Below the pieces are notes generated by a model. That model made no database searches and was not told where the DNA came from. It worked only from the letters and a program-made list of their open reading frames with translations. A program made the position numbers and the translations under genes. Below are positions 51,830 through 64,000 of a stretch of DNA of 64,000 nt, piece by piece; position 1 is the stretch's first letter, and every line of letters begins with the position of its first letter. The stretch comes from Promethearchaeia archaeon. Its GTDB lineage: Archaea; Asgardarchaeota; Lokiarchaeia; Sigyniarchaeales; SOKP01. The DNA is taken from assembly GCA_029856155.1 (NCBI GenBank), contig JAHQWL010000023.1, positions 155,757 to 219,756 on the forward strand. The letters run 5' to 3'.

Positions 51830-52834
51830 CTAGACTAAATTATTTATGATAATTTCAGATATATCTCCAGAATATTCAGCAGTTCTTCTTATACTCTCAA
51901 TTATATAGCCTATTGCTATGGAAACTTCAGCGCTACTGGTTGTATTAAGACTTATTTTTTCTGTCGCTGCTATTAAATTTTTAATATCCTCTATATTTTC
52001 ATTCGCTAGGACTAAGCTTTTTTGAAGCCATGCATCAAGACTTTTATTCAATAAATCCAGTGATAATTTACTTACAATTTTAATCTCGTCCTTTAGATTT
52101 TTATCTAATACTTGTTGTTTAAGGATCAAAACATTTTTAGCAATTTTACTAGCATGATCTCCAATACGTTCCAGGAAACGACTCATTTGCTGGTAATGAC
52201 TTGCTTGTTCTAAAGTTATCCCCATTTTCTGGCAAAGAATAATATCCCTCAATGCAATATGAGATTGACGACCAATTAACCAATGCAATCTGTCAACGTC
52301 ATTGTCTCTTTTAATAACTTCTTCTGCTAATTCCTTATTTCTTGTTTCAAAGGCGTTAATAGCATCTTCATGCATATCTTGTACAAGAATATACATTCTC
52401 TTAATCGTTTTTTCAAAAGGCATTTCCTTAGGATTAAGCAAATCTTTAATTACAATGAAATTATTAGATTCTTCAACAATTTCTGGACCTATAGCAATTT
52501 GAGTAAAAAGAGTAATTATATCTCTTAACACGGGTTCAAACTTCTTACTAGATTTAAGAATTATCTTTGAAAAACCCATTATATATGCTCCGATTAAAAC
52601 TCGAAATAAAAAATTTTTATCTCTATATTCATCAACTATTATTTCTTTTGTTTTTATGACATTTTCATTGTCAATCTGTGGTGTTATAAGCAAATTACCA
52701 TCAGGTTGCGATAAAATTCCCAATGTATCTTTTGATTTAATACCGTGTTTATCAATCCACACTTTAGGAAGAGAAATAATATAACTAGAACCCCCTGTTT
52801 TTTGCACTTTTCTCGTTTCTATATGAAATCCCAT
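51830..52834 (-). CDS. phoU: Archaeal phosphate uptake regulator (AbrB-like N-terminal domain plus tandem PhoU domains)
   Basis: RKVQKTGGSSYIISLPKVW, DNDVDRLHW, LERIGDHA, IRRTAEY. Likely start MGFHIE at 52834. Confidence 0.92.
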   Translation of the reverse strand: MGFHIETRKVQKTGGSSYIISLPKVWIDKHGIKSKDTLGILSQPDGNLLITPQIDNENVIKTKEIIVDEYRDKNFLFRVLIGAYIMGFSKIILKSSKKFEPVLRDIITLFTQIAIGPEIVEESNNFIVIKDLLNPKEMPFEKTIKRMYILVQDMHEDAINAFETRNKELAEEVIKRDNDVDRLHWLIGRQSHIALRDIILCQKMGITLEQASHYQQMSRFLERIGDHASKIAKNVLILKQQVLDKNLKDEIKIVSKLSLDLLNKSLDAWLQKSLVLANENIEDIKNLIAATEKISLNTTSSAEVSIAIGYIIESIRRTAEYSGDISEIIINNLV

Positions 52835-52856
52835 TATTATCCCTTTACTTATAATA

Positions 52857-52951
52857 TCTATATAGAATTCAAATCTCATTAATGATATTATTACCTTATA
52901 TAGAGTATATAATCTTTCAGTTATATATTTCAACTATATACTCTATATATA
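52857..52951. promoter_or_regulatory. TATATA-N3-TATATA array with a perfect 15-bp inverted repeat upstream of phoU
   Basis: TATATAGAGTATATA (52897-52911) is the reverse complement of TATATACTCTATATA (52935-52949). Palindrome TCTATATAGA at 52857-52866. Confidence 0.55.
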
Positions 52952-53042
52952 TTTAAATTAGAAAGGACATGAGAGATATAAACTCAATATACTTAACCAC
53001 TTTCAGTATTGGAAAGAGGAGGATCTTAGTAATTGCAATATT

Positions 53043-53726
53043 CTAGATTCCTTTTTCACTGGTTAATAAAACCATAATGTAATCTGCGACACCCTCAATT
53101 GAGTCGGAGATAGCTTCCAAAATATCAAATATATTTCCTGCTGTAAAGATAGTGAAGAAATTAACATCATAATGGGTTTCTTGAAGGCTTTTTCTTAATT
53201 GAATATTCATTAGATCAACATCATGTTCATATTCATTTATTTTTCTTGCTATCTCTTTAACATTTTTCCTATCTTCAACAAAATCCATAACAATTTTATC
53301 CAATAGCTCACCGCATATGACAGTAGTTTTCATAATCTGGCTAACCAAATTTATGGTTTCCTCACTACTTTGTTCCCAGAACTTAACTGGTATAGTAGCA
53401 ATTCTACGAGCAACTCCAGTACAACAGTTAGCCACATCATCCATTCTCTTAACTAGATGAGAAAGATTCTGCCTAATACTAGGATCTAATTCTCCTCTAG
53501 AAATATCTTGTTGTATTTTTCTTCTTAATTTATCTGCATCTCTTTCTATAACATCAACATTATGAAAAATACTATATGATTTGTCAAGATTTTTTTCTTT
53601 TAAAAGCATTTGCAATCCTGTGTCTAACTCTCTTACACATTCTTGTACTTTCCGGGCATGTGTTATTGTCTTTTCTAAAGCATTTAAAGCAGTTTCCCTT
53701 TTCAAATATTCAATTAAAGATCCTAT
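53043..53726 (-). CDS. DUF47 (PhoU-like phosphate transport regulator) family protein
   Basis: ERDADKLRR, LVKRMDDVAN, EHDVD, LEAISDSIEGVAD. Probable ATA start at 53726; the track uses TTG 53705. Confidence 0.88.
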   Translation of the reverse strand: MGSLIEYLKRETALNALEKTITHARKVQECVRELDTGLQMLLKEKNLDKSYSIFHNVDVIERDADKLRRKIQQDISRGELDPSIRQNLSHLVKRMDDVANCCTGVARRIATIPVKFWEQSSEETINLVSQIMKTTVICGELLDKIVMDFVEDRKNVKEIARKINEYEHDVDLMNIQLRKSLQETHYDVNFFTIFTAGNIFDILEAISDSIEGVADYIMVLLTSEKGI

Positions 53727-53802
53727 TCAAATCACCATTTCTTTTCAATCATTATAACCTTTTTATAATTATATATATATTACATTTATTTTTAATAATT
53801 TA

Positions 53803-54840
53803 TCATGATAATCCAAATGAACTTAACCCAACATAGATAAAACCTGCTAAAAGTGCAGCTATTGGAAAGGTCAATACCCAATAGAGTCCCATCTTACCTA
53901 ATCCTTTATAATCCACCTCTTTTTTTTGGGCAAGACTCATACCAATTATACAGAAGACAATTACATGGCTATGGGAAATTGGGAGGGCAAATAATGTAGC
54001 AACCATTAAAATAAGTGCAGAACTCATCTGTATAATAAACCCTTCACTAGGGCGTGTATCTATCATATGAGAAGCAAGATTTTTGATTACATATCGTGCT
54101 GCAAAGTAAATACCGAGAAATGCAAATATTCCACAGAAAATTGCAAATATAAGATATTGACTACTGTTAATAGAATTGTTTTCCCTAAGACCTAAAAGGA
54201 TGCCTAAAGCTTCCCCTGAATTAGCTCCAACCCAAATTTCTGCAAATAAAACAGCAATTAATAAAAGCCATTTAAAAGTTTTTTCAGATTTTTCAATCTG
54301 ATTTAAGCCCCTTAACCGAGATAAAACAAATTTAGCACTTATTTTAAAGAGAATGTATGTGATTAATAAACCTGATATCGGAGATATAAACCAACTTAAA
54401 ACAACATCTCTTAACTTTTCATAATTAAACGCAGTATTAAGATCAATTCCTCCTTGAGAGATTGCATAGATTATAACAACACCAACAATGCTCCCAATTA
54501 ATGAGTGAGTACTGCTTAAAGGAATGCCTGCAAAACTACCTACTACTAGCCATATAATACTACTTATTAGTACTGCTAAAAGCATATAATTAGTATATTT
54601 TCCTTCCAAGCCCTCACCTAAAAGGCTTTTACCAACGGTTTCTGGAACAAAACCTCCACTAAAAAGAATCATACCAGAACCTATGGCGATGCCACCTATT
54701 ATTAACGCTATTTTAAACTTTAACACACCGGCTCCGACTAAAGAAGCAAGAGTTTCATCATTCGCCCCAATGCTAAAAGCTAAACCAACAGCCATCATTA
54801 CTAGGACTATAACTAGGATTATTGTTAATTCTTCAGCCAT
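53803..54840 (-). CDS. PiT-family inorganic phosphate transporter
   Basis: IGANDE, GIPLSSTHSLIG, SWFISP, GANSGE, LPISHSH. Confidence 0.9.
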   Translation of the reverse strand: MAEELTIILVIVLVMMAVGLAFSIGANDETLASLVGAGVLKFKIALIIGGIAIGSGMILFSGGFVPETVGKSLLGEGLEGKYTNYMLLAVLISSIIWLVVGSFAGIPLSSTHSLIGSIVGVVIIYAISQGGIDLNTAFNYEKLRDVVLSWFISPISGLLITYILFKISAKFVLSRLRGLNQIEKSEKTFKWLLLIAVLFAEIWVGANSGEALGILLGLRENNSINSSQYLIFAIFCGIFAFLGIYFAARYVIKNLASHMIDTRPSEGFIIQMSSALILMVATLFALPISHSHVIVFCIIGMSLAQKKEVDYKGLGKMGLYWVLTFPIAALLAGFIYVGLSSFGLS

Positions 54841-54861
54841 AATATTCTTGACTTTTATTTA

Positions 54862-55524
54862 TTAATCAAAGATTAGATATTTTGTTGCTAGAAACTGAAT
54901 GTATTCTGAAAAATCCTTTATATGATCGGCCAACATCATTATATCTTCAATTAAATTCTTAAGGTACAGAAAAGTTCTGGAAAGATAATCCATATCATAA
55001 TTATAAAGTCGTTTTATTAATTTCCACTCTTCAATTCTCATTTTTCTTCTTTCTTCTTTTATTTCTTCACATATATCATGAGCTTTACTTAGATCAGTTC
55101 CAATCAATTTCACTGCATCTGATACATCATTGGAAATAGTTCTTAATGATTTCAAGATACTTTGAATCTGAAGCTTAAATTCTTCGTCAGGAAAGACCAC
55201 TTTATATAAAAGCATCCTATTTGCTAAATATTCCCCAATATTTTTGATATCGTTTATCTTAGTGAATAACTTCAACCTATCTGCTTTGGAGAACATTAAT
55301 TTTGATTTGAATATTTTAGATTCAAATTTTTTTTTTATTTGGACTTCAGTATTAGTGTCGATAACGTAATTCAGGTTTTCTTTGAATTTATTAAAATCCT
55401 CTTTAACAAGAAATTCAATCCCTTTTATCAACTTTAGGTTCTGTTCATTTATATTATCCATAAATAATTGCGTTAATTCATCAATACTAAGTTTATTTAG
55501 TTCTTTATCATCAAATTCTTTCAT
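54862..55524 (-). CDS. Divergent DUF47/PhoU-like helical protein
   Basis: FSKADRLKLF..INDI, IKEERRKMR, IMMLADHIKDFSEYI. Directly upstream of pit. Confidence 0.65.
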   Translation of the reverse strand: MKEFDDKELNKLSIDELTQLFMDNINEQNLKLIKGIEFLVKEDFNKFKENLNYVIDTNTEVQIKKKFESKIFKSKLMFSKADRLKLFTKINDIKNIGEYLANRMLLYKVVFPDEEFKLQIQSILKSLRTISNDVSDAVKLIGTDLSKAHDICEEIKEERRKMRIEEWKLIKRLYNYDMDYLSRTFLYLKNLIEDIMMLADHIKDFSEYIQFLATKYLIFD

Positions 55525-55680
55525 TTTCTTCAAAATTACATTTTGTATTCTATAAAGTCTAATATATTTTCTATTAAATTTCTATATATAGTTAAATTTA
55601 TTTGTTGATTTATTAATCTCTAAATATAACTCAAAACAATTACACATTTAAATTGCTATTTAAATTTAAAGGAGTTTTTT

Positions 55681-56310
55681 ATGAATTCTTATAATAATTT
55701 ACCAGAAGCTAAAATTATACCTGTGGGAGAAGTTTCACAAAAGTTTTTAGACCTTGGAATTAAATCATTTAGAGAAGCTTGTGAGTATGTACATGGTATT
55801 GAATATGGTTATAACACTGATTACGATGATAGAATGATTCTTTTTAAGGAAAATAAAGGAACTTGTACTACTAAGCATGCTGTAATCGCAGGCCTAGCTG
55901 AAGAACTTGAAATACCTATTTATAAACATGTTGGTGTTTATAAATTTACAGAAAAAATCTCAAGTGGAACAAATAAAATTCTTAGAAAATATAAGGTTCC
56001 CTATGTCCCAATCGTGCATTGCTTTTTAGTATATAAAGATTTTCGATTTGATCTAACCGAAGGAAATTGTAATGGAAAAAATACCATTATAGAGGAATTT
56101 ATTCATGAGGAAAAAGTAGATCCTTTTATTAGTAGAAAGAATGAATATTTAATTCTTAAAAAAGTGATAAAAGAATACATCTTACCATCTAAAGAAATGG
56201 AAGGGGTTAAAGAGAGATCCCTTTTAAAAGCGAGAGAAGAAGCAATTATTCTTTTAAAAGAAAATGTAAAAAGACAAAAAAATATGAAAAGTCCTCAAAA
56301 AAATAATTAA
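55681..56310 (+). CDS. Hypothetical protein with transglutaminase/papain-like Cys-His-Asp signature
   Basis: GTCTTKH...VHCFLVY...RFDLT. Confidence 0.6.
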   Translation: MNSYNNLPEAKIIPVGEVSQKFLDLGIKSFREACEYVHGIEYGYNTDYDDRMILFKENKGTCTTKHAVIAGLAEELEIPIYKHVGVYKFTEKISSGTNKILRKYKVPYVPIVHCFLVYKDFRFDLTEGNCNGKNTIIEEFIHEEKVDPFISRKNEYLILKKVIKEYILPSKEMEGVKERSLLKAREEAIILLKENVKRQKNMKSPQKNN

Positions 56311-56359
56311 TGTTTTTACTTCTATAAAAACATAATAGATAGAATTTTGAAAATTATAA

Positions 56360-57043
56360 TTACATTCGTTTTGCTATTGTCAACATAATTATATAATCCG
56401 CAACATCCTCTGCGTTATCGCTAATTGCTTCCATTGTTGATATAAAATTATGAATTACTATTGCGCTAAATGGATTAATATCTGGACTATTTGATACTAA
56501 ACTTCTACTAATTGCATAGTGTTTTTCATCACATTGATGTTCTAAAATATTAACTTCTTCACCTATCTCTTGGATTTTTGTGTCCTCAGCTTTTAAAAGT
56601 CCATTAACCATTTGATTTACTTTTTTAACAGCTTCAACTGAGATTTTTGAGATATCTAAAATATTGCGATGAATGTCCTCCTCTAAATTCATAAAATCTT
56701 TATGATTCATGGAGATAAGAATTCTTGAACAAGCATTTGCAGCATTTGCAATATCATCAATTCTTTTAACAAGATGCGTTAAATTTTCTCGAATTTTAGA
56801 TGGAAGTTTTGCTTGTGAAAGCAAATTTAGGATATTTCTACGAATTCCATCTGCTTGATGTTCTAATTCATCAACTCTGAAAAACACTTTTAATGCGAGA
56901 TCGATATTTTTTTCTTCAAGGAGGAATGATAATCCTTTATCAAATTCCACAATACATTCAAGTACTTTCTGAGTGTGAACTATAGTTAAATTCATTGCAT
57001 TCTCTTCATTACGAGATTTAAACCATTCCATTAATGAACTCAT
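56360..57043 (-). CDS. DUF47 family phosphate transport regulator
   Basis: EHQADGIRR, LVKRIDDIAN, LEHQCD, MEAISDNAEDVAD. Confidence 0.9.
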   Translation of the reverse strand: MSSLMEWFKSRNEENAMNLTIVHTQKVLECIVEFDKGLSFLLEEKNIDLALKVFFRVDELEHQADGIRRNILNLLSQAKLPSKIRENLTHLVKRIDDIANAANACSRILISMNHKDFMNLEEDIHRNILDISKISVEAVKKVNQMVNGLLKAEDTKIQEIGEEVNILEHQCDEKHYAISRSLVSNSPDINPFSAIVIHNFISTMEAISDNAEDVADYIIMLTIAKRM

Positions 57044-57100
57044 TAATTTTCTCTCTTTTTTTATATTTTTTTCTTTTTATCTTTATTATTATAAGTAATT

Positions 57101-58324
57101 TTATTCTAATTTTAATACTTCCCTTATTAATTCTTCACCTGGATGTTTGAAAATGATCCCTAATTCTTTCGGGAAATATATTGTTACTTCTGAATTCTCT
57201 AAAAATGCATCATGAATTTCATAGGTTGCAGGTATAGTGATTATTATTACTTTTTCTTGTCGTTTCATTTTGATAAGAACTTCAAATCGATAAAAAACTC
57301 CCATAAATTTACGACGGAGTATTTTTCCTAATATTGCATTTTTCTTTTGATCTACGCGATTACCAAGTCGAATTTTCATATGATTGGCTCGAACAACCAA
57401 CAGTACTTTATCTCCATGCTTGATTTCATTATTTAATGATTTATTTAAATAACCTGCAAATGTTTCTTTAAAACCAATATTTATGGGTAATGGAACTGAA
57501 ACTTCTTGAATCTCATTAAAGAATTTATCACCTTGTTGTGATTTGCTAAAAATATCCCATGTAGGTTTTTCATTTTTGGTACAAATTCCTTCAAAATAAT
57601 TAATTTCACTCATAAAATATGCAACAAACAGATTCTTAGGATGATAGTAAATTTCATGGGGCGTTCCTATTTGAACAATTTTACCTTGATTAATAACTGC
57701 TATTCTATCAGCAATCATCATTGCTTCTTGTTCTTCATTTGTAACATGTATTACAGTAAGTTCTAATTCTTTAGATTTTGCCATTAGAAGTAATTCTCTT
57801 CTTAAACTCATTCTAAGTCCTGCGTCAAGAGCTTTTAAAGGTTCGTCTAATATTAGCAGCTTAGTCTGCTCCAGATTTAGTAAGGATCGACAAAGTGCAA
57901 CTCTTTGCTTCATTCCACCACTTAATTCTTCAGGGTATGCACCATTTCTCCCTGTTAGGAGCGTCATCATTAATACTTGATCAACCAAGGTTTGGGTCGT
58001 TTTAGGATCTCTTGCGTGGACACGACCACTATATGAAACGTTTTCGACAATATTCATATGAGGAAATAATGCATAATTTTCAAACATAAAACCTATATTT
58101 CTCTCCCCAGCAGTTTTATTTGTCACATCTTTCCCGTCAAAAAATACAGTTCCAGAATCAGGTTTAAGTAAACCAGCTATAAGTTTGAGTAAAGTAGTCT
58201 TACCTGCTCCAGTTGGACCTAAAATAATAAAATACTCTTTATCTTTAACTTCTAGAGAAATATTATCCAAAGCAGTGAATTTTCTAAATATTTTAGTTAT
58301 ATTTTTCAACTCGATATGAACCAT
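57101..58324 (-). CDS. ABC transporter ATPase (CysA/PotA-like, C-terminal TOBE-like extension)
   Basis: GPTGAGKT, LSGGMKQR, LILDEP. Q-loop carries E and H-loop carries N. Confidence 0.9.
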   Translation of the reverse strand: MVHIELKNITKIFRKFTALDNISLEVKDKEYFIILGPTGAGKTTLLKLIAGLLKPDSGTVFFDGKDVTNKTAGERNIGFMFENYALFPHMNIVENVSYSGRVHARDPKTTQTLVDQVLMMTLLTGRNGAYPEELSGGMKQRVALCRSLLNLEQTKLLILDEPLKALDAGLRMSLRRELLLMAKSKELELTVIHVTNEEQEAMMIADRIAVINQGKIVQIGTPHEIYYHPKNLFVAYFMSEINYFEGICTKNEKPTWDIFSKSQQGDKFFNEIQEVSVPLPINIGFKETFAGYLNKSLNNEIKHGDKVLLVVRANHMKIRLGNRVDQKKNAILGKILRRKFMGVFYRFEVLIKMKRQEKVIIITIPATYEIHDAFLENSEVTIYFPKELGIIFKHPGEELIREVLKLE

Positions 58325-58335
58325 ATATTTTTCAC

Positions 58336-59481
58336 CTATGTAAGGGATAATTCCTTTAGAATGTTTTTTGGAGCTTTAAATACATGAATATCATCTTGAT
58401 GTATACCAATTACTAATTTCTGTCCTGGAGTAAAGTTTTCTTCGAAATTTCCTGGTTTTACTGATAAGAACTTATCACCATTATCCAATTTTAAATAAAA
58501 TCTTTTAGTTGCTCCGATAAATCTTGATATCTCTAAACTAGCTTTAAATAACTGAATTTTTGACCAATCATACTGACTATTTTCGAAATCATAATCCTCT
58601 GGAAATAAATATACATCTTCATAACGAAATGCAATTACAATATTATCATCTAGGCTAAAAATTTTGTCAACATTGTAATAATTTAATTTAGGACCCCCTA
58701 AACGAATATTTACTGTCATCTCTTCATTCTCAAGCAACTTAAACACAAAACCCTGAAGAAAATTTGTTTCACCTAAAAAATTAGCAACAAATATACTATT
58801 AGGATTTTCATATAATTCAAAGGGAGTTCCCATCTGAAGAAGTTTTCCTGCTCTCATAATTATTATTTTATCCGCTATTGCCATAGCTTCCTGTTGATTA
58901 TGGGTAACGTGGAGAGCAGTAAGACGTAGATCTTTTATTAAATTTCTTAGCTCATGACGAAAAACTTTTGATACTTTTGGATCCAATGATCCTAAAGGTT
59001 CATCCATAATTAGAATTTTTGCTCCTGTTGCTATAGCTCTTGCTATTCCTAATTTTTGTAGACCAGGATTTCCAAATATTGAGGGATAATCATCAGCGTA
59101 TTGTAATAAATCAACTGTTTTGAGGGCTTTTTCAGCTTTTTCGATTATATAATCATCATCATACCCCCGTATTTCTAATCCAAAAGTTATGTTTTCCCAA
59201 ACTGTAAGATGGTCAAATATTTCAAAATGCTGAAAAATAAAACCCATATCTCTATCTTCCGGAGGAATTCCCTCAACATCTTTTCTATCAATTAATATTT
59301 CCCCCTTGGTAGGTTTTTCTAAACCTGCAATCATTCGTAGAGTTGTTGTTTTCCCACACCCGGTTGGACCGATAAGAAATACATAGTCACCATCTTCAAT
59401 TTTCACAGATATATTGTCTACAGCAAGAACTCTTCCATCATCGAATGTTTTAGAGACATTAATTAATTCAATAGTTGGAAT
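58336..59481 (-). CDS. ABC transporter ATPase (CysA/PotA-like) with degenerate signature motif
   Basis: GPTGCGKT, LIMDEP, HVTH; the signature reads FGNPG. The in-frame N-terminus IPTIELINVSKTFDDGRVLAVDNISVKI extends to ATT 59481 (track starts at 59406). Confidence 0.9.
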   Translation of the reverse strand: MPTIELINVSKTFDDGRVLAVDNISVKIEDGDYVFLIGPTGCGKTTTLRMIAGLEKPTKGEILIDRKDVEGIPPEDRDMGFIFQHFEIFDHLTVWENITFGLEIRGYDDDYIIEKAEKALKTVDLLQYADDYPSIFGNPGLQKLGIARAIATGAKILIMDEPLGSLDPKVSKVFRHELRNLIKDLRLTALHVTHNQQEAMAIADKIIIMRAGKLLQMGTPFELYENPNSIFVANFLGETNFLQGFVFKLLENEEMTVNIRLGGPKLNYYNVDKIFSLDDNIVIAFRYEDVYLFPEDYDFENSQYDWSKIQLFKASLEISRFIGATKRFYLKLDNGDKFLSVKPGNFEENFTPGQKLVIGIHQDDIHVFKAPKNILKELSLT

Positions 59482-59483
59482 TT

Positions 59484-61184
59484 TTATATCACTCCTCTTT
59501 TTCTGACAATTCTTAAAGCAAATATTAGGAACGAGCTAAAAATTATAATAATAACACTTGCAAAAATTGCACTTGCATAAGCATTTGCTTCAACCCAATC
59601 AACAATCAGCACAGGAATGGTTCTAATATTTCCCATTACTACAATTGTGGCACCTGTTTCACCCAAAGATCGCGTAAATACCATGATACACCCTGCAATA
59701 ATTCCCTGTTTTATATTAGGAAGAGTTATTTTTCTAAACACTGTAAGATTTGAAGCTCCTAAAGTACGGGCTGCTTCTTCAACTCCTTTATTTGAGCGTT
59801 CAAGAACTCCAATAATTGGACGAACCATATAAGGAAATGTAAATGCAATATGGACAAATAAAATCATAAAAAACCCTGATTGGAATAACCCTAACCCTGC
59901 AGGACCCCAAAAAAGGAATGTTGCAAATCCCAAAGCAGCTGAAGGAATTGCAATTGGAATATCTAAAATTGTATCTAATAATGTAATAACTTTGCCCCAT
60001 TTTCTTTTTGTTATTATAAAAGCAAATGGAATCCCAAAAATAAGATTTATAACAACAGCTAAAGCACCAATAGTAATTGAATATATTAAACTAACATATA
60101 AATATACCCATTTGTAATCTTGACCTAAGAACATTTCCTCTATTAAATTTTCGCCAAATATTTCAATTATTATATAGAAAGCAGGGATAAGTATAACGCT
60201 TAAGAGAATTGTTAGAGCTAAAATATCCCTTAAATATCTTATATACTTATGACTAAGAAATCGTTCTATTCTTGGCCAAACAGATTTTATAGGGAATCCT
60301 GTTTTTCGTGTTAAAAATTTTATTGAAAAAAGAAGTAAAAGGGAAATTGCAATTAATATACCTGCTAATAAAGAAGCAGATGGTAATTCTAATTGTCTTC
60401 TAAACCCTACAATCAAAATTGGTGCGGTTTCTACTAAGCCTGAAAGAATAATTGTAGCACCGGTTTCACCAAGACTTCTTGTAAAAGCAAGAACAGCACC
60501 AGCTATCAACCCTTCTTTCATCAATGGAAGGGTGATAGTTCTAAAGACTGTAAAACCTGAGGCTCCTAGAGTTTGAGCTGCTTCTTCATATAAAGTAGAA
60601 GTTTTTTCTAACACTATTTTCAAATTACGTACAATGTAAGGAAAGGTAAATACTATATGACCTAATAGTATTAGTGTAAATCCGGGTTCAATTTTAAATA
60701 TTCCCCAAAATAACAAAACAGAAAAACCTAACGCACTTGTAGGAACAGCCATTGGCAGATCTACTAATGCATCTAGAATTTTTTTTCCTCTAAAATTATA
60801 GCGAGTTAATATAATTGAGATAGGAAAAGCAATTATGATATCAATTCCAACAGCAATCGCTGCAATTGTAAATGAATACCCCAGTGAGCTCAATATATTA
60901 AGCCATTGCAGATTTCCCAATAATTCATCATTAAATACATCTCGATTTATTGTTGGGATATTTAGAAATATCGTGGAAAAAATGTTAATTATTGGACCAA
61001 TGATCACTAAACCAAAAAATAATATTACAATTGTATCTAAACTTTTTCGATATACTGGTTTAGAAAAAAATCTATCTATCCTTAAGCCAATAGGAAGTTG
61101 TAATTCTTCCTCAACTGCTTTTTCTTCTGAATATTGGATATTTTTATTGCGACGTTTAAGATTTTTAATAATTAATCCTCTCAA
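59484..61184 (-). CDS. Fused two-domain ABC permease (CysT/CysW/ModB-like)
   Basis: Two copies of DLP.A.P.....G, FTFPY.VR, EEAA.TLGAS..TVFR.ITLP and FTRSLGETGATI. Confidence 0.92.
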   Translation of the reverse strand: MRGLIIKNLKRRNKNIQYSEEKAVEEELQLPIGLRIDRFFSKPVYRKSLDTIVILFFGLVIIGPIINIFSTIFLNIPTINRDVFNDELLGNLQWLNILSSLGYSFTIAAIAVGIDIIIAFPISIILTRYNFRGKKILDALVDLPMAVPTSALGFSVLLFWGIFKIEPGFTLILLGHIVFTFPYIVRNLKIVLEKTSTLYEEAAQTLGASGFTVFRTITLPLMKEGLIAGAVLAFTRSLGETGATIILSGLVETAPILIVGFRRQLELPSASLLAGILIAISLLLLFSIKFLTRKTGFPIKSVWPRIERFLSHKYIRYLRDILALTILLSVILIPAFYIIIEIFGENLIEEMFLGQDYKWVYLYVSLIYSITIGALAVVINLIFGIPFAFIITKRKWGKVITLLDTILDIPIAIPSAALGFATFLFWGPAGLGLFQSGFFMILFVHIAFTFPYMVRPIIGVLERSNKGVEEAARTLGASNLTVFRKITLPNIKQGIIAGCIMVFTRSLGETGATIVVMGNIRTIPVLIVDWVEANAYASAIFASVIIIIFSSFLIFALRIVRKRGVI

Positions 61185-62305
61185 GCTGTTGCTTTACAAA
61201 GTAACCATAAATCTGGGATTTTTAATAATACATCTCCGTCCAAAGGGGTTCTCATTTCAGATATATTCAACTCAAAGGCAATCCCATTAGTTTCATAATT
61301 AAAAACTGCAGGATCTAATGGAATAGACAGATCAATAGGTCTAAAACCGTATTGTATAGCAGACTCAATAGTCTCATTTCTATTAAGAAAATCTAAAAAA
61401 GCTTCTGCTACAGTTCTTTGTTTAGGAGTTATCCAATCAGCATTTAATATGCAAAATGGATGATCACTATATAGAGTACCTTCTTCTGGATAGATCGCTA
61501 TTATTTTTCCTCCTGTAGCAGTGCTAGAAATATCTCGTATCAAATTTTCATATAAGAAGGCTATATTTAAAGCACTTGGTCCTTGGCTTTTCATATATCG
61601 TGCTAAAAAACCTGTTGATTTTCCATATAACACAGCTCTAGATTCAAATTCTCTTAGCCATTGTTGATTGGCAGGATTAAGAAGATCTGTCATTGAAAGA
61701 TTTTCTGAAGCAGTTCCTGAAACCGCGGATAATGCCATTATCACACTCATGAAACCAGAATTTGATAAACGTGGGTCAGTATGAGCCATTCTAACATTTA
61801 CATTTGGATTGATACTTAGATCATGGACATCTGCAAAACTTTTAATATTGTACGTATGATTAAACGCTTCCCAAGTAGCAATTACTATAGGGGAATATAT
61901 TATCTTTACAGCATCACTAAGATTTAATATAGGATCTATGCTTTTAGTTAAATCTGCCCATTTTTTATTTAATATAGACATCCAAATTGAACTAGCAGGG
62001 CTCCAAATCGTTGGAAATATCTCATTATTTAATATAGAAATTATTGAATCTGAAGAACCATACGGATGCATATCGATACTAATTGGGTTACCTGGATGTA
62101 AATTCTGCCACTCATTCATAAAATCTGAATAAGCAACAGTCATCCAACTTGCTTTTTCAGAACTATAAATTATTGTTATGTGGGTTTTCTGTCCTGCATC
62201 CCCAAGTATAAGATTGGCAGAGAAGTTTCCAATAAGGAACCCTAATATAAAAAAAAACACCACTTTAATCTTAATCTGCTTTTTAATTTTGCGTGGTTGA
62301 TTCAT
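61181..62305 (-). CDS. ABC substrate-binding protein (type II, oxyanion-binding-like) with N-terminal anchor
   Basis: TM anchor, SSEKASW, WSPASS, SPIVIA, TDPRLSNSG, YEN, YPEEGTLYSDHP, YGFRP. Overlaps the start of the permease ORF. Confidence 0.82.
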   Translation of the reverse strand: MNQPRKIKKQIKIKVVFFFILGFLIGNFSANLILGDAGQKTHITIIYSSEKASWMTVAYSDFMNEWQNLHPGNPISIDMHPYGSSDSIISILNNEIFPTIWSPASSIWMSILNKKWADLTKSIDPILNLSDAVKIIYSPIVIATWEAFNHTYNIKSFADVHDLSINPNVNVRMAHTDPRLSNSGFMSVIMALSAVSGTASENLSMTDLLNPANQQWLREFESRAVLYGKSTGFLARYMKSQGPSALNIAFLYENLIRDISSTATGGKIIAIYPEEGTLYSDHPFCILNADWITPKQRTVAEAFLDFLNRNETIESAIQYGFRPIDLSIPLDPAVFNYETNGIAFELNISEMRTPLDGDVLLKIPDLWLLCKATA

Positions 62306-62451
62306 AATCTTCTAAGGGTCATTAAACTTTAGTTTAAATAAATGATCTAATAAAATTATCTAAATAAGTGAACAAGATTCCACATATTATCCCTAACATT
62401 AATATAATCAGAAACAAGGTTCGTCTTTTCATAAGACTTGCTTATTAAAAC

Positions 62452-62563
62452 ACTATATATATTTTTTTCTGTTTAAATTCAAACTTATATTTGAAATTAA
62501 TTTGTTGTGAGTTATTTGAATAGTTTTACTATATATCATATATATCCTATATAGAGATATATA
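62452..62563. promoter_or_regulatory. Phased TATATA array upstream of the ABC operon
   Basis: TATATA at 62530, 62539 and 62548 (9-bp period), at 62558, and near 62454. Confidence 0.5.
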
Positions 62564-62578
62564 ATTTGGACTTATTAA

Positions 62579-64000
62579 TTATAATAAACTTTTTCCGACA
62601 ACACTCTTGTGTGGTGTTTTTCCTAAAATATTCAGTAATGTAGGGACAATATCTGTAATTTTACAATGAGAAATTTCTTTATGAGGAATTTCTAAGGAAC
62701 CTCCTACTATTAAAGGAACATTCATGCATTTTCTTAGACCTAAATCATGATTTGAAATATTCTTACCCATCTGTTTTCCATGATGAATGTTGTACACTAT
62801 ACTTCCATCATTGCTAAGAATGATGTCTGCACTTCGGGGATTTTTAAAATGGCGTGGTATTAAGTCTGGCAGCATAGGATAATCAAGATGATAAGTTGCC
62901 ATTAACCATTCTTGAGTTGTATGGAATTTATTATCTAAGAGTTGACAGGCTGTTGTATCATTAAAGTAATTAAACACATCATTTTCTTCATCATTTGGTA
63001 TATATCTTGTTTTATAATCAAGGCCAGTTCCTTGATATTCAATGATAGATGTTAATATTTGGTTATTATCTTTACATCTTTTCTTTAAATATATAATTCC
63101 TTTTTGAGAGGTATTATTATCACCTCGATAAAACATCAATTGACTAGCTTCAATCTTGAATAATTGATTTATTAAATTTATTTTATTTGGACCATATGAT
63201 TCAAGATCCATCAGAGTGGGGTGCGACCATTGATATTTCTTATCTGAATTATTTGTTCCTTTAAAATAAAAGAACCCTACACCATCATATTTAGCTAGAT
63301 CAAAATTCCCTCTTTTTTTTTTTCGAGGATGGTATTGTATTAATTTATTTCGATTAAGAAATGACTGCAAATTTCCTAACCTATCCGCTTTATAGTTTCC
63401 ATGATCTGAAGTAATTGCAATTACGGTATCGTTTAAATAACCCAATTTATCTAATTCGTTAATTAGAAACCCTAATACTTTATCTATATGTAACAAATTT
63501 AATTTATATATTCGTGAATTAGATCCAAATAAATGTAATAATATATCAGAAGACGCAAACCAGAGTAAAGATGCTATTGGTGGTTCTTTATTATTAAAAA
63601 ATTTCTTTGGATTCTTAAAATTCTCTAATAATTTTTGAACTACTAATGAATTTGCTCTAATCATTGTTTTTTTTGTATTCTGGGAGTAATATAAAAGAAG
63701 ATAAAATAAAGCAAGTTTAGTTCTTCTTTCAGGGTAGAAATATTTTGTACCTCTGTTAATAAACTGGGTAATACTTGTAGTATTTCCTTCTCCTACCATC
63801 TCGAGGATAGTTCTGCAATTATTTCCTAGATCTTCGTTTATCTTATAAATTTGCATATCTTTGGCAGCATAATTCCTTAGACTTGGAGGAGTTTTATCAC
63901 GATCCAGCCAATCCATTAAAGGAACTCCATGGCAAAATTCTTTTCTAAAATCACCAGTATAGGTTCCAGTAATCATCGATACTTGAGTTGGATAGGTCAC
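62579..64000 (-). CDS. Alkaline-phosphatase superfamily nucleotide pyrophosphatase/phosphodiesterase, 5' end outside the window
   Basis: TYPTQVSMITG (catalytic Thr motif), DILLHLFG, ITSDHG, NHDLG, VPLIVGG, ITDIVPTLL. Confidence 0.85.
   Translation of the reverse strand: MTYPTQVSMITGTYTGDFRKEFCHGVPLMDWLDRDKTPPSLRNYAAKDMQIYKINEDLGNNCRTILEMVGEGNTTSITQFINRGTKYFYPERRTKLALFYLLLYYSQNTKKTMIRANSLVVQKLLENFKNPKKFFNNKEPPIASLLWFASSDILLHLFGSNSRIYKLNLLHIDKVLGFLINELDKLGYLNDTVIAITSDHGNYKADRLGNLQSFLNRNKLIQYHPRKKKRGNFDLAKYDGVGFFYFKGTNNSDKKYQWSHPTLMDLESYGPNKINLINQLFKIEASQLMFYRGDNNTSQKGIIYLKKRCKDNNQILTSIIEYQGTGLDYKTRYIPNDEENDVFNYFNDTTACQLLDNKFHTTQEWLMATYHLDYPMLPDLIPRHFKNPRSADIILSNDGSIVYNIHHGKQMGKNISNHDLGLRKCMNVPLIVGGSLEIPHKEISHCKITDIVPTLLNILGKTPHKSVVGKSLL

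Follow-up and report, generated by a model that had tools for sequence, protein, structure and literature searches.

What does an ATP-binding cassette (ABC) importer carry when its neighbors are those of a phosphate regulon and its parts resemble those of sulfate transporters? The question is raised by positions 51830–64000 of a 64,000-nucleotide stretch of DNA from a Loki-type Asgard archaeon (Promethearchaeia; contig JAHQWL010000023.1; hereafter, the window, meaning the whole stretch analyzed), where genes for a substrate-binding protein (SBP), a fused permease, and 2 ATPases lie among 3 DUF47 genes and genes for a PiT-family permease, an AbrB-PhoU regulator, and a phosphodiesterase. We propose, with a probability of roughly 60%, that the system belongs to a phosphate regulon and imports phosphate or a phosphoryl compound, having evolved separately from the Pst system. 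Orthophosphate would be the most likely cargo and, failing that, a small molecule bearing a phosphoryl or phosphonyl group. Literature searches found no published account of an Asgard phosphate ABC system like this one.

Conserved linkage of the importer to phosphate genes

We fetched about 50 loci around SBP homologues, originating from at least 8 Asgard families (labeled here f1, the family of the window, f2, and so on), and labeled their open reading frames (ORFs) with phmmer. The SBP-permease-ATPase-ATPase core is present in 46 of the 47 loci that are not cut inside the core, L023 being the exception, and a DUF47 gene lies directly beside it in approximately 45 of the 48 loci not cut by a contig end, in most cases downstream and co-oriented, oppositely oriented in f18, and upstream in f16 and f20. 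The order SBP-permease-ATPase(-ATPase)-PhoU_div is kept in distant relatives with SBPs only 38% to 40% identical (L086 and L087). AbrB-PhoU is found within 15 loci, a DUF47-PiT-DUF47 cluster adjoins the operon in 15, and AbrB-PhoU, PiT, or pst-phoU genes are nearby in about 23 of 51. The linkage to phoU- and pit-type genes, on which an earlier, sequence-only reading of this DNA had built the idea of a phosphate island, is thus not peculiar to this genome and recurs across Asgard families.

The source assembly comprises 4.1 Mb in 104 contigs and is 97% complete. Genes were called from the ORF listing and from Pfam and NCBIfam profile scans of positions 51830–64000; every gene of the sequence-only reading was recovered in its place, and all but one are on the minus strand. 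From the phosphodiesterase to the regulator, the features are as follows.

62579–64000, minus strand: NPP-type phosphodiesterase or pyrophosphatase of the alkaline-phosphatase superfamily, C-terminal 473 codons (PF01663)
62433–62578, minus strand: promoter region of the importer operon, with 2 copies of the octamer ATATATAG (62453–62460 and 62529–62536)
62334–62432, minus strand: 32-amino-acid (aa) microprotein with a single transmembrane segment, first gene of the importer operon (ORF, transmembrane prediction, and tblastn)
61181–62305, minus strand: membrane-anchored SBP of an uncharacterized Sbp-fold family (PF13531)
59484–61184, minus strand: fused two-domain permease of the CysT/CysW/ModB type, 566 aa (2 BPD_transp_1 halves)
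58336–59487, minus strand: ATPase 1, with a degenerate signature and a TOBE_2 C-terminus (Pfam/NCBIfam)
57101–58324, minus strand: ATPase 2, with an intact LSGGM signature and altered Q- and H-loops (Pfam/NCBIfam)
56360–57043, minus strand: DUF47/PhoU_div protein (PitR-type), last gene of the importer operon (PF01865, 90.4 bits)
55681–56310, plus strand: conserved island protein of 209 aa without a family match (orthologues in related islands)
54862–55533, minus strand: DUF47 paralogue upstream of PiT (PF01865, 36.8 bits)
53803–54840, minus strand: PiT-family inorganic anion permease (PF01384, 181.7 bits)
53043–53705, minus strand: DUF47 paralogue downstream of PiT (PF01865, 99.5 bits)
51830–52933, minus strand: AbrB-PhoU regulator (PF04014, 41 bits; PF01895, 79.3 bits)

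The window ends where its contig ends. Contigs C26 and C27 share exactly 127 bp and can be joined, which completes the phosphodiesterase gene and fixes the boundary of the island, and beyond the phosphodiesterase, C27 encodes unrelated proteins, namely a DUF285 surface protein, an M42 peptidase, and PolB.

Receptor, permease, and ATPases

The SBP, which carries an N-terminal transmembrane anchor (residues 15–33), scores 55.4 bits against PF13531; it matches neither PF12849 nor any NCBIfam model (E value 0.001), and a single-sequence phmmer search of PDB proteins gave no match. Only the family profile, built from 64 diverse members, reaches Sbp among PDB proteins, matching sulfate-binding proteins (1sbp, E value 5e-10), and comparison with Escherichia coli Sbp using hhalign yielded a probability of 94%. 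An AlphaFold2 model based on a 64-row diverse alignment reached a predicted local distance difference test score (pLDDT) of 96, whereas the model obtained from 25 close homologues was unusable (pLDDT 48.5). The best structural match of the former is likewise Sbp (1sbp; Z 28.2, root-mean-square deviation of 3.4 over 296 residues), followed by thiamin-binding protein (Z 27.8), then by SubI, stm0429, the glucose-6-phosphate-binding VcA0625, and AfuA, and further by FbpA- and PotD-type proteins; WtpA matches less well (Z 20.0 over 235 aligned residues). Neither fold search has PstS among its listed matches, which we read only as Sbp-type folds matching better. The motifs SSEK (residue 48), WSPASS (101), SNSG (181), YEN (252), and SDHP (280) lie where they had been placed from the sequence, and the loop previously described as a Ser-x-Ser-Gly loop of the oxyanion type, S-N-S-G, aligns with the S130-G-G sulfate loop of the sulfate-binding protein. 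By alignment, the ligand positions Ser45, Ser130-Gly-Gly, and Trp192 of Sbp correspond to Ser84, Ser181-Asn-Ser-Gly, and Tyr252, respectively, and the oxyanion loops carry extra hydroxyl residues (more Ser and Thr) compared to Sbp. Collectively, the profile, fold, and loop matches to Sbp point to an Sbp-class receptor of the oxyanion or phosphoryl type rather than to a PstS, and the modeled fold, which has proteins that bind phosphoryl or phosphonyl ligands among its top neighbors (thiamin-binding protein, VcA0625, AfuA, and stm0429), suits a phosphoryl ligand.

Close homologues of the SBP (63% to 85% identical) all belong to Loki-type and other Asgard genomes, and the more distant relatives are stand-alone proteins and many bacterial proteins in which the SBP is fused to a von Willebrand factor A (vWA) domain. 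The earlier remark that the SBP resembles vWA-fused binding domains and not PstS is therefore borne out. The bacterial fusions ("Ca-activated chloride channel family") have the same binding-domain family and motif set at 30% to 40% identity, but carry the vWA domain at the C-terminus and have no permease neighbors; bacterial and vWA-fused relatives adjoin Ser/Thr kinases or unrelated genes, and these contexts are uninformative. One SBP encoded in a genome of another family (f24; G241, C73:5297–6418) scores like those of f1 (688 bits), which suggests a recent transfer or a mis-binned contig.

The permease contains 2 EAA and 2 FTRSLGETGA motifs and approximately 11 hydrophobic helices, and its halves score best against CysT/CysW, molybdate, and tungstate models, in line with its initial assignment to the sulfate/molybdate type and not to PstC or PstA. 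It passes the sulfate-permease subfamily model TIGR00969 with a score that sums the 2 halves (247 bits; cut-off 240) and falls below the CysT and CysW equivalogs (210.8 versus 246.1 and 183.8 versus 329.1 bits, respectively). Against ModB, it scores 221 bits in total, with 121.8 and 112.7 bits for the halves (cut-off 182.6). Scores are 194.4 bits against WtpB (cut-off 340), 32 against TupB (cut-off 320), 76.7 against PstC (TIGR02138; cut-off 196.45), and 58.8 against PstA (TIGR00974; cut-off 193.45). The ATPases, too, were rightly distinguished from PstB, scoring 124.3 and 122.2 bits against a TIGR00972 cut-off of 343.2; they match generic PotA/CysA/PhnT2-type models of NCBIfam, remain below the CysA cut-off, and reach 238 bits against WtpC (cut-off 440).

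The 2 ATPases differ in the motifs that they retain. ATPase 1 has intact Walker A and B motifs, Q-loop, and H-loop, with FGNPG in place of LSGGQ, whereas ATPase 2 keeps LSGGM and has replaced Gln by Glu in the Q-loop and His by Asn in the H-loop. This asymmetry is conserved: the signature of ATPase 1 is degenerate in 45 of 47 orthologues, and in ATPase 2 the Q-loop glutamine is replaced in 45 of 47 (41 by Glu, 4 by Ala) and the H-loop histidine in 33 of 47 (32 by Asn, 1 by Gln). Judging by these motifs, the heterodimer should contain one consensus, working ATP site and one degenerate site. ATPase 1 has no in-frame ATG, GTG, or TTG start; an AGGAG site is followed by ATA-AAA-ATT (59481–59490), the ATA of which overlaps the TAA stop of the permease gene (ATAA), so that the start would be a near-cognate ATA or ATT. 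This arrangement suggests near-cognate initiation or termination-reinitiation coupling.

A fused double permease is typical of the FbpB, ThiP, and AfuB systems, and FbpA, TbpA, and PotD are strong fold neighbors of the SBP (Z 22 to 28), the family of which conserves His, Asp, Glu, and Tyr residues (HTDP, YEN, and SDHP) that could bind metal. The cargo might accordingly be free of phosphorus (a ferric-anion complex, as for FbpABC, thiamin, or a polyamine), with DUF47 serving as a generic transporter regulator. We consider this highly improbable: the permease halves score best against sulfate/molybdate models, not ThiP or Pot; the Tyr-Tyr pair of FbpA is missing from the SBP, with YEN providing a single Tyr; and it is AbrB-PhoU, PiT, and pst that are conserved next to the importer, rather than iron or vitamin genes.

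Pst, sulfate, and tungstate systems in Asgard genomes

The absence of pstSCAB from the window was noted in the sequence-only reading, and no pst gene was found in the whole 97%-complete assembly either. Hidden Markov model (HMM) searches found no PstC, PstS (PF12849), or PstB above cut-off in it, 2 congeneric PstS proteins gave no tblastn match, and tblastn queries with congener PstS, PstC, PstA, PstB, and PhoU yielded only two kinds of match, PstB hitting generic ABC ATPases and PhoU weakly hitting the AbrB-PhoU gene of the island. With no Pst found, the new system is the sole ABC-type candidate for phosphorus uptake in this genome.

We then surveyed 301 sampled Asgard genomes, with f1 represented by 68 genomes besides this one; the counted genomes are related and not independent, and we make no statistical claim on the counts. 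The new SBP is encoded in 80 of the 301 genomes, PstC in 155, ATP sulfurylase in 131, a TupA-like protein in 96, and WtpA in 23. An anti-correlation with Pst had been predicted and was not found: within f1, 14 genomes have both systems, 15 the new ABC only, 9 Pst only, and 30 neither. Phylum-wide, Pst occurs in 28 of the 80 genomes with the new system versus 127 of the 221 without it, a mild negative trend driven by differences between families, such as f7 (new system in 22 of 28 genomes, Pst in 5 of 28), f10 (5 of 5 and 0 of 5), and f9 (0 of 76 and 60 of 76). A complete pstS-C-A-B-phoU operon lies alongside the importer in 4 loci, inside the same island in the congeners G207 and G276 and also in G165 and G237 of f2; PF12849 scans confirmed the PstS genes of G207, G276, and G237. 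Given this co-occurrence within the family, the importer complements Pst rather than generally replacing it. The original suggestion that it "replaces or complements Pst" thus stands in its second part, and in its first part only for genomes such as this one. Some relatives carry fused Pst permeases, including a 702-aa PstC-PstA protein (L016, 13918–16026) and a 1012-aa permease with a long N-terminal extension ahead of both permease domains (L017, 353–3391).

Several observations weigh against phosphate as the cargo. The components are closest, by sequence and fold, to those of sulfate, molybdate, and tungstate systems and not to known phosphate importers, and an acidic pocket residue equivalent to Asp56 of PstS could not be placed in the SBP. 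The presence of the new system is not complementary to Pst within f1, and the adjacency of pst was seen in only 2 families of one order. The octamer ATATATAG showed no clear genome-wide specificity, with 403 copies and nine paired clusters, the other eight of which are located at unrelated genes. Finally, the genome encodes ATP sulfurylase and adenosine 5'-phosphosulfate (APS) kinase as well as 16 AOR genes, and no other ABC permease or SBP of the sulfate (CysTW) or tungstate type was found in it.

These points bear on 2 rival cargoes. One is sulfate or thiosulfate, imported by a divergent CysPTWA system that would feed ATP sulfurylase and APS kinase, the PhoU-type neighbors being co-located for some other reason. 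Sbp being the best match of the SBP by both profile and structure, and the permease passing TIGR00969, speak for it, as does an operon on C78 (6956–10089; L030) in which ATP sulfurylase, a 462-aa NPP/Phosphodiest-family protein, and APS kinase are encoded co-oriented. This sulfur-activation cluster lies directly after dTDP-sugar and epimerase genes and looks like a supply of 3'-phosphoadenosine 5'-phosphosulfate for sulfated glycans, with the NPP-like enzyme between the 2 activation steps. Within f1, however, 20 genomes have both the new system and ATP sulfurylase, 9 the new system only (including the 100% complete G177, G083, and G174), 18 ATP sulfurylase only, and 21 neither. The closed genome G213 has the operon, with neither ATP sulfurylase nor PstC in the surveys, and all 5 genomes of f10 have the system, 1 of them encoding ATP sulfurylase. 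Furthermore, the SBP matches no NCBIfam sulfate-binding model, the ATPases stay below the CysA cut-off, and none of the roughly 50 importer neighborhoods contains a sulfur-metabolism gene, whereas PhoU-type genes are nearly always there. We regard a sulfate importer as unlikely.

The other is tungstate, molybdate, or vanadate, destined for tungsten-dependent AOR enzymes, the reading favored for Asgard SulT homologues in a published transporter census, where they are presumed to be tungstate or vanadate importers (PMC7997004). No TupA, TupB, WtpA, or ModA was found in this genome, with its 16 AOR genes, whereas congeners carry TupABC-like or WtpABC operons; the permease halves match the ModB and WtpB models and the ATPases match WtpC; and most genomes of f7 and f2 have the new system and rarely Tup or Wtp. 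Against this, the matches to WtpB and WtpC fall far short of the model cut-offs, the Z score of WtpA (20.0) compares poorly with that of Sbp (28.2), and no molybdopterin or AOR genes occur in the importer neighborhoods. Nor are the systems complementary: within f1, 11 genomes have both the new system and a TupA-like protein, 18 the new system only, 14 the TupA-like protein only, and 25 neither, and TupA-like or WtpA proteins are found in 14 of 30 genomes with the new system versus 15 of 39 without it; both systems are present in 5 of 5 f10 genomes and in the closed genomes G026 and G074. We rejected the argument that being the only oxyanion ABC importer beside 16 AOR genes commits the system to tungstate, as 4 relatives (G040, G065, G071, and G104; 98% to 100% complete) have 10 to 16 AOR genes, no recognizable ModA, and none of Tup, Wtp, and the new system, so that lacking Tup and Wtp is normal in the family. 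We place this cargo at the same low likelihood as sulfate. As the new system shows no complementarity with Pst, ATP sulfurylase, or TupA-like/WtpA, the presence/absence patterns do not discriminate between substrates.

None of the Asgard TupA-like proteins comes near the NCBIfam TupA cut-off (best 223 bits versus 400). Their partners are a TupB-like permease and a WtpC-like ATPase (L033, 4132–7017), a pairing that points to a divergent Asgard Tup-type system.

Phosphate-type partners and a proposed mechanism

All 3 DUF47 genes of the island pass the PF01865 gathering cut-off of 24.4 bits, including the gene at 54862–55533, which was correctly located in the sequence-only reading but labeled too cautiously as "DUF47-like"; it is DUF47 proper. 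The DUF47 score against NCBIfam TIGR00153 is below cut-off (72.1 versus 104.3 bits). The ABC-linked protein additionally contains one weak PF01895 stretch (26.9 bits) and is not a two-domain PhoU. When 75 DUF47 proteins were placed in a tree, the copies linked to the ABC importer, those upstream of PiT, and those downstream of it separated from one another, with 3 label changes versus 27 when labels are shuffled. The ABC-linked orthologues of f1 form a 23-member clade (100/99 support) apart from the PiT-linked paralogues, of which the upstream ones constitute a separate, very divergent clade, and the downstream ones a clade of their own nested among ABC-linked proteins. A complex prediction of DUF47 with ATPases 1 and 2 is not used as evidence, the control having scored equally high. 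PF01865 corresponds to the PitR clade, for which control of phosphate homeostasis has been shown by experiment in Staphylococcus aureus; every clade of PhoU reportedly goes with a single family of inorganic phosphate importers, and the 3 pairings listed (PhoU-Pst, PitR-Pit, and PhoU domain-NptA) do not include an ABC importer with a PitR-type protein (PMC13170248).

The PiT protein is well above the PF01384 cut-off (33.7 bits) and scores alike against NCBIfam PitA and CysP (61.7 and 60.7 bits), far below both cut-offs; a second PiT paralogue of the genome is encoded on C81. A single copy of AbrB-PhoU was recovered by tblastn, and no other gene with a PhoU domain was found in the genome. In 6 loci (L045, L051, L061, L073, L074, and L018), the gene immediately upstream of the importer operon, on the other strand, is AbrB-PhoU, adjoining the SBP gene or, in L018, the upstream DUF47 gene, and this arrangement is represented in f1, f2, f3, and f17. 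In L015, L016, and L018, AbrB-PhoU is on the opposite strand to pstS. The octamer ATATATAG is enriched at the island promoters, those of PiT and AbrB-PhoU in this genome included, and is found at the pstS/AbrB-PhoU promoters of the same 3 loci. Literature searches for an archaeal AbrB-PhoU regulator returned nothing relevant. The 209-aa protein has no match in Pfam, NCBIfam, or PDB; its orthologues occur in the same island in at least 6 genomes (L015, L016, L037, L043, L045, and L046), making it a candidate further member of the regulon.

The phosphodiesterase fragment scores 52.3 bits against PF01663 (cut-off 23), and a full-length homologue, P0275, scores 90.4. The fragment begins with the Thr-nucleophile motif TYPTQ, the metal-binding Asp motif ILCIID is seen in P0275 and on C27, and an SDHGN motif can be read in the sequence; the sulfatase CxPxR motif is absent from the N-terminal part. 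The best relatives of solved structure are ENPP4, ENPP5, ENPP1, and a Xanthomonas NPP. Neither P0275, which begins directly with the metal-binding strand, nor the N-terminus on C27 has a signal peptide, and the enzyme is probably cytoplasmic. An NPP-type enzyme adjoins the importer in 10 loci, all within f1 and in only part of that family. Without a signal peptide and with so restricted a linkage, the adjacent phosphodiesterase cannot define the core cargo of the importer. The microprotein is found directly upstream of the SBP gene in the f1 loci fetched (47% to 84% identity, tblastn), with a predicted transmembrane helix at residues 6–24 and the C-terminal motif D-N-[FY]-I-[RK]-S-F-I.

Under our preferred reading of a phosphate or phosphoryl importer, the membrane-anchored SBP would capture a tetrahedral oxyanion outside the cell and hand it to the fused CysTW/ModB-type double permease, with transport driven by the ATPase 1/ATPase 2 heterodimer, the degenerate site of which is probably regulatory. 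The microprotein would likely be an extra subunit. The terminal DUF47 protein probably acts as PhoU does for Pst, reporting on or throttling transport, and AbrB-PhoU probably controls transcription of the importer operon and DUF47-PiT-DUF47, as well as of pst in genomes that have it. In the part of f1 that has it, the cytoplasmic NPP-type phosphodiesterase may free phosphate from internal or imported diesters.

We compared the importer with the closest known systems. It shares with PstSCAB-PhoU the operon logic of SBP, 2 permease domains, ATPase(s), and a PhoU-fold protein in last position, along with the AbrB-PhoU/PiT neighborhood and, in relatives, one island with a real pst operon. However, no part is orthologous: the SBP has the PF13531/Sbp fold and not PF12849, the partner is a PF01865 protein, the ATPases form a heterodimer with a degenerate site, and there is an extra microprotein. 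The CysPTWA-Sbp and Mod/Wtp systems (SulT and MolT) provide the closest permease models and SBP fold and profile, with alignable oxyanion loops, but the new system differs in its fused permease, 2 different ATPases, Tyr in place of Trp192, and richer Ser/Thr content, and none of the curated models for sulfate, molybdate, or tungstate recognizes its SBP. To our knowledge, Cys, Mod, and Wtp operons have neither a PhoU_div partner nor a neighborhood of phosphate genes. As in PitR-Pit of S. aureus, a PF01865 protein is encoded directly beside the presumed transporter, and the window also contains DUF47-PiT-DUF47; here, however, one PF01865 paralogue is linked to an ABC importer and not to a Pit carrier. 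The ugpBAECQ operon of E. coli, which belongs to the Pho regulon, combines a glycerophosphodiester ABC importer with a cytoplasmic phosphodiesterase and likewise sets an ABC importer beside a phosphodiesterase without a signal peptide in a phosphate-regulated context; the enzyme here is of the NPP and not the glycerophosphodiester phosphodiesterase type, is confined to part of f1, and accompanies another class of SBP and permease.

More speculatively, and as a tentative extension that we hold with less than even confidence, the system could be a second archaeal phosphate ABC importer, independent of Pst and built on a sulfate-transporter chassis with its own SBP family, a degenerate ATP site, a microprotein, and a PitR-type partner; it would then represent a fourth pairing of a PhoU-fold protein with an importer and the main high-affinity phosphorus route in Asgard genomes without Pst. 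Phosphorus uptake in the archaea closest to eukaryotes has been annotated almost entirely by homology. PstC is not detectable in 146 of the 301 Asgard genomes, 52 of which carry the new system, and in the published census such genes are classed with tungstate/vanadate uptake (PMC7997004). Should phosphate or a phosphoester prove to be the cargo, the metabolism reconstructed for Loki-type archaea would need correcting, a machine resembling Pst-PhoU would have evolved convergently from sulfate-transporter parts, and the rule that each PhoU clade serves one importer family would extend to an ABC importer with a PitR-type protein. The conserved ATPase pair, with one good and one dead site, is unusual for a type I importer. 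Because the binding domain is common to the bacterial SBP-vWA proteins, the ligand of the SBP, once found, would annotate that widespread family as well.

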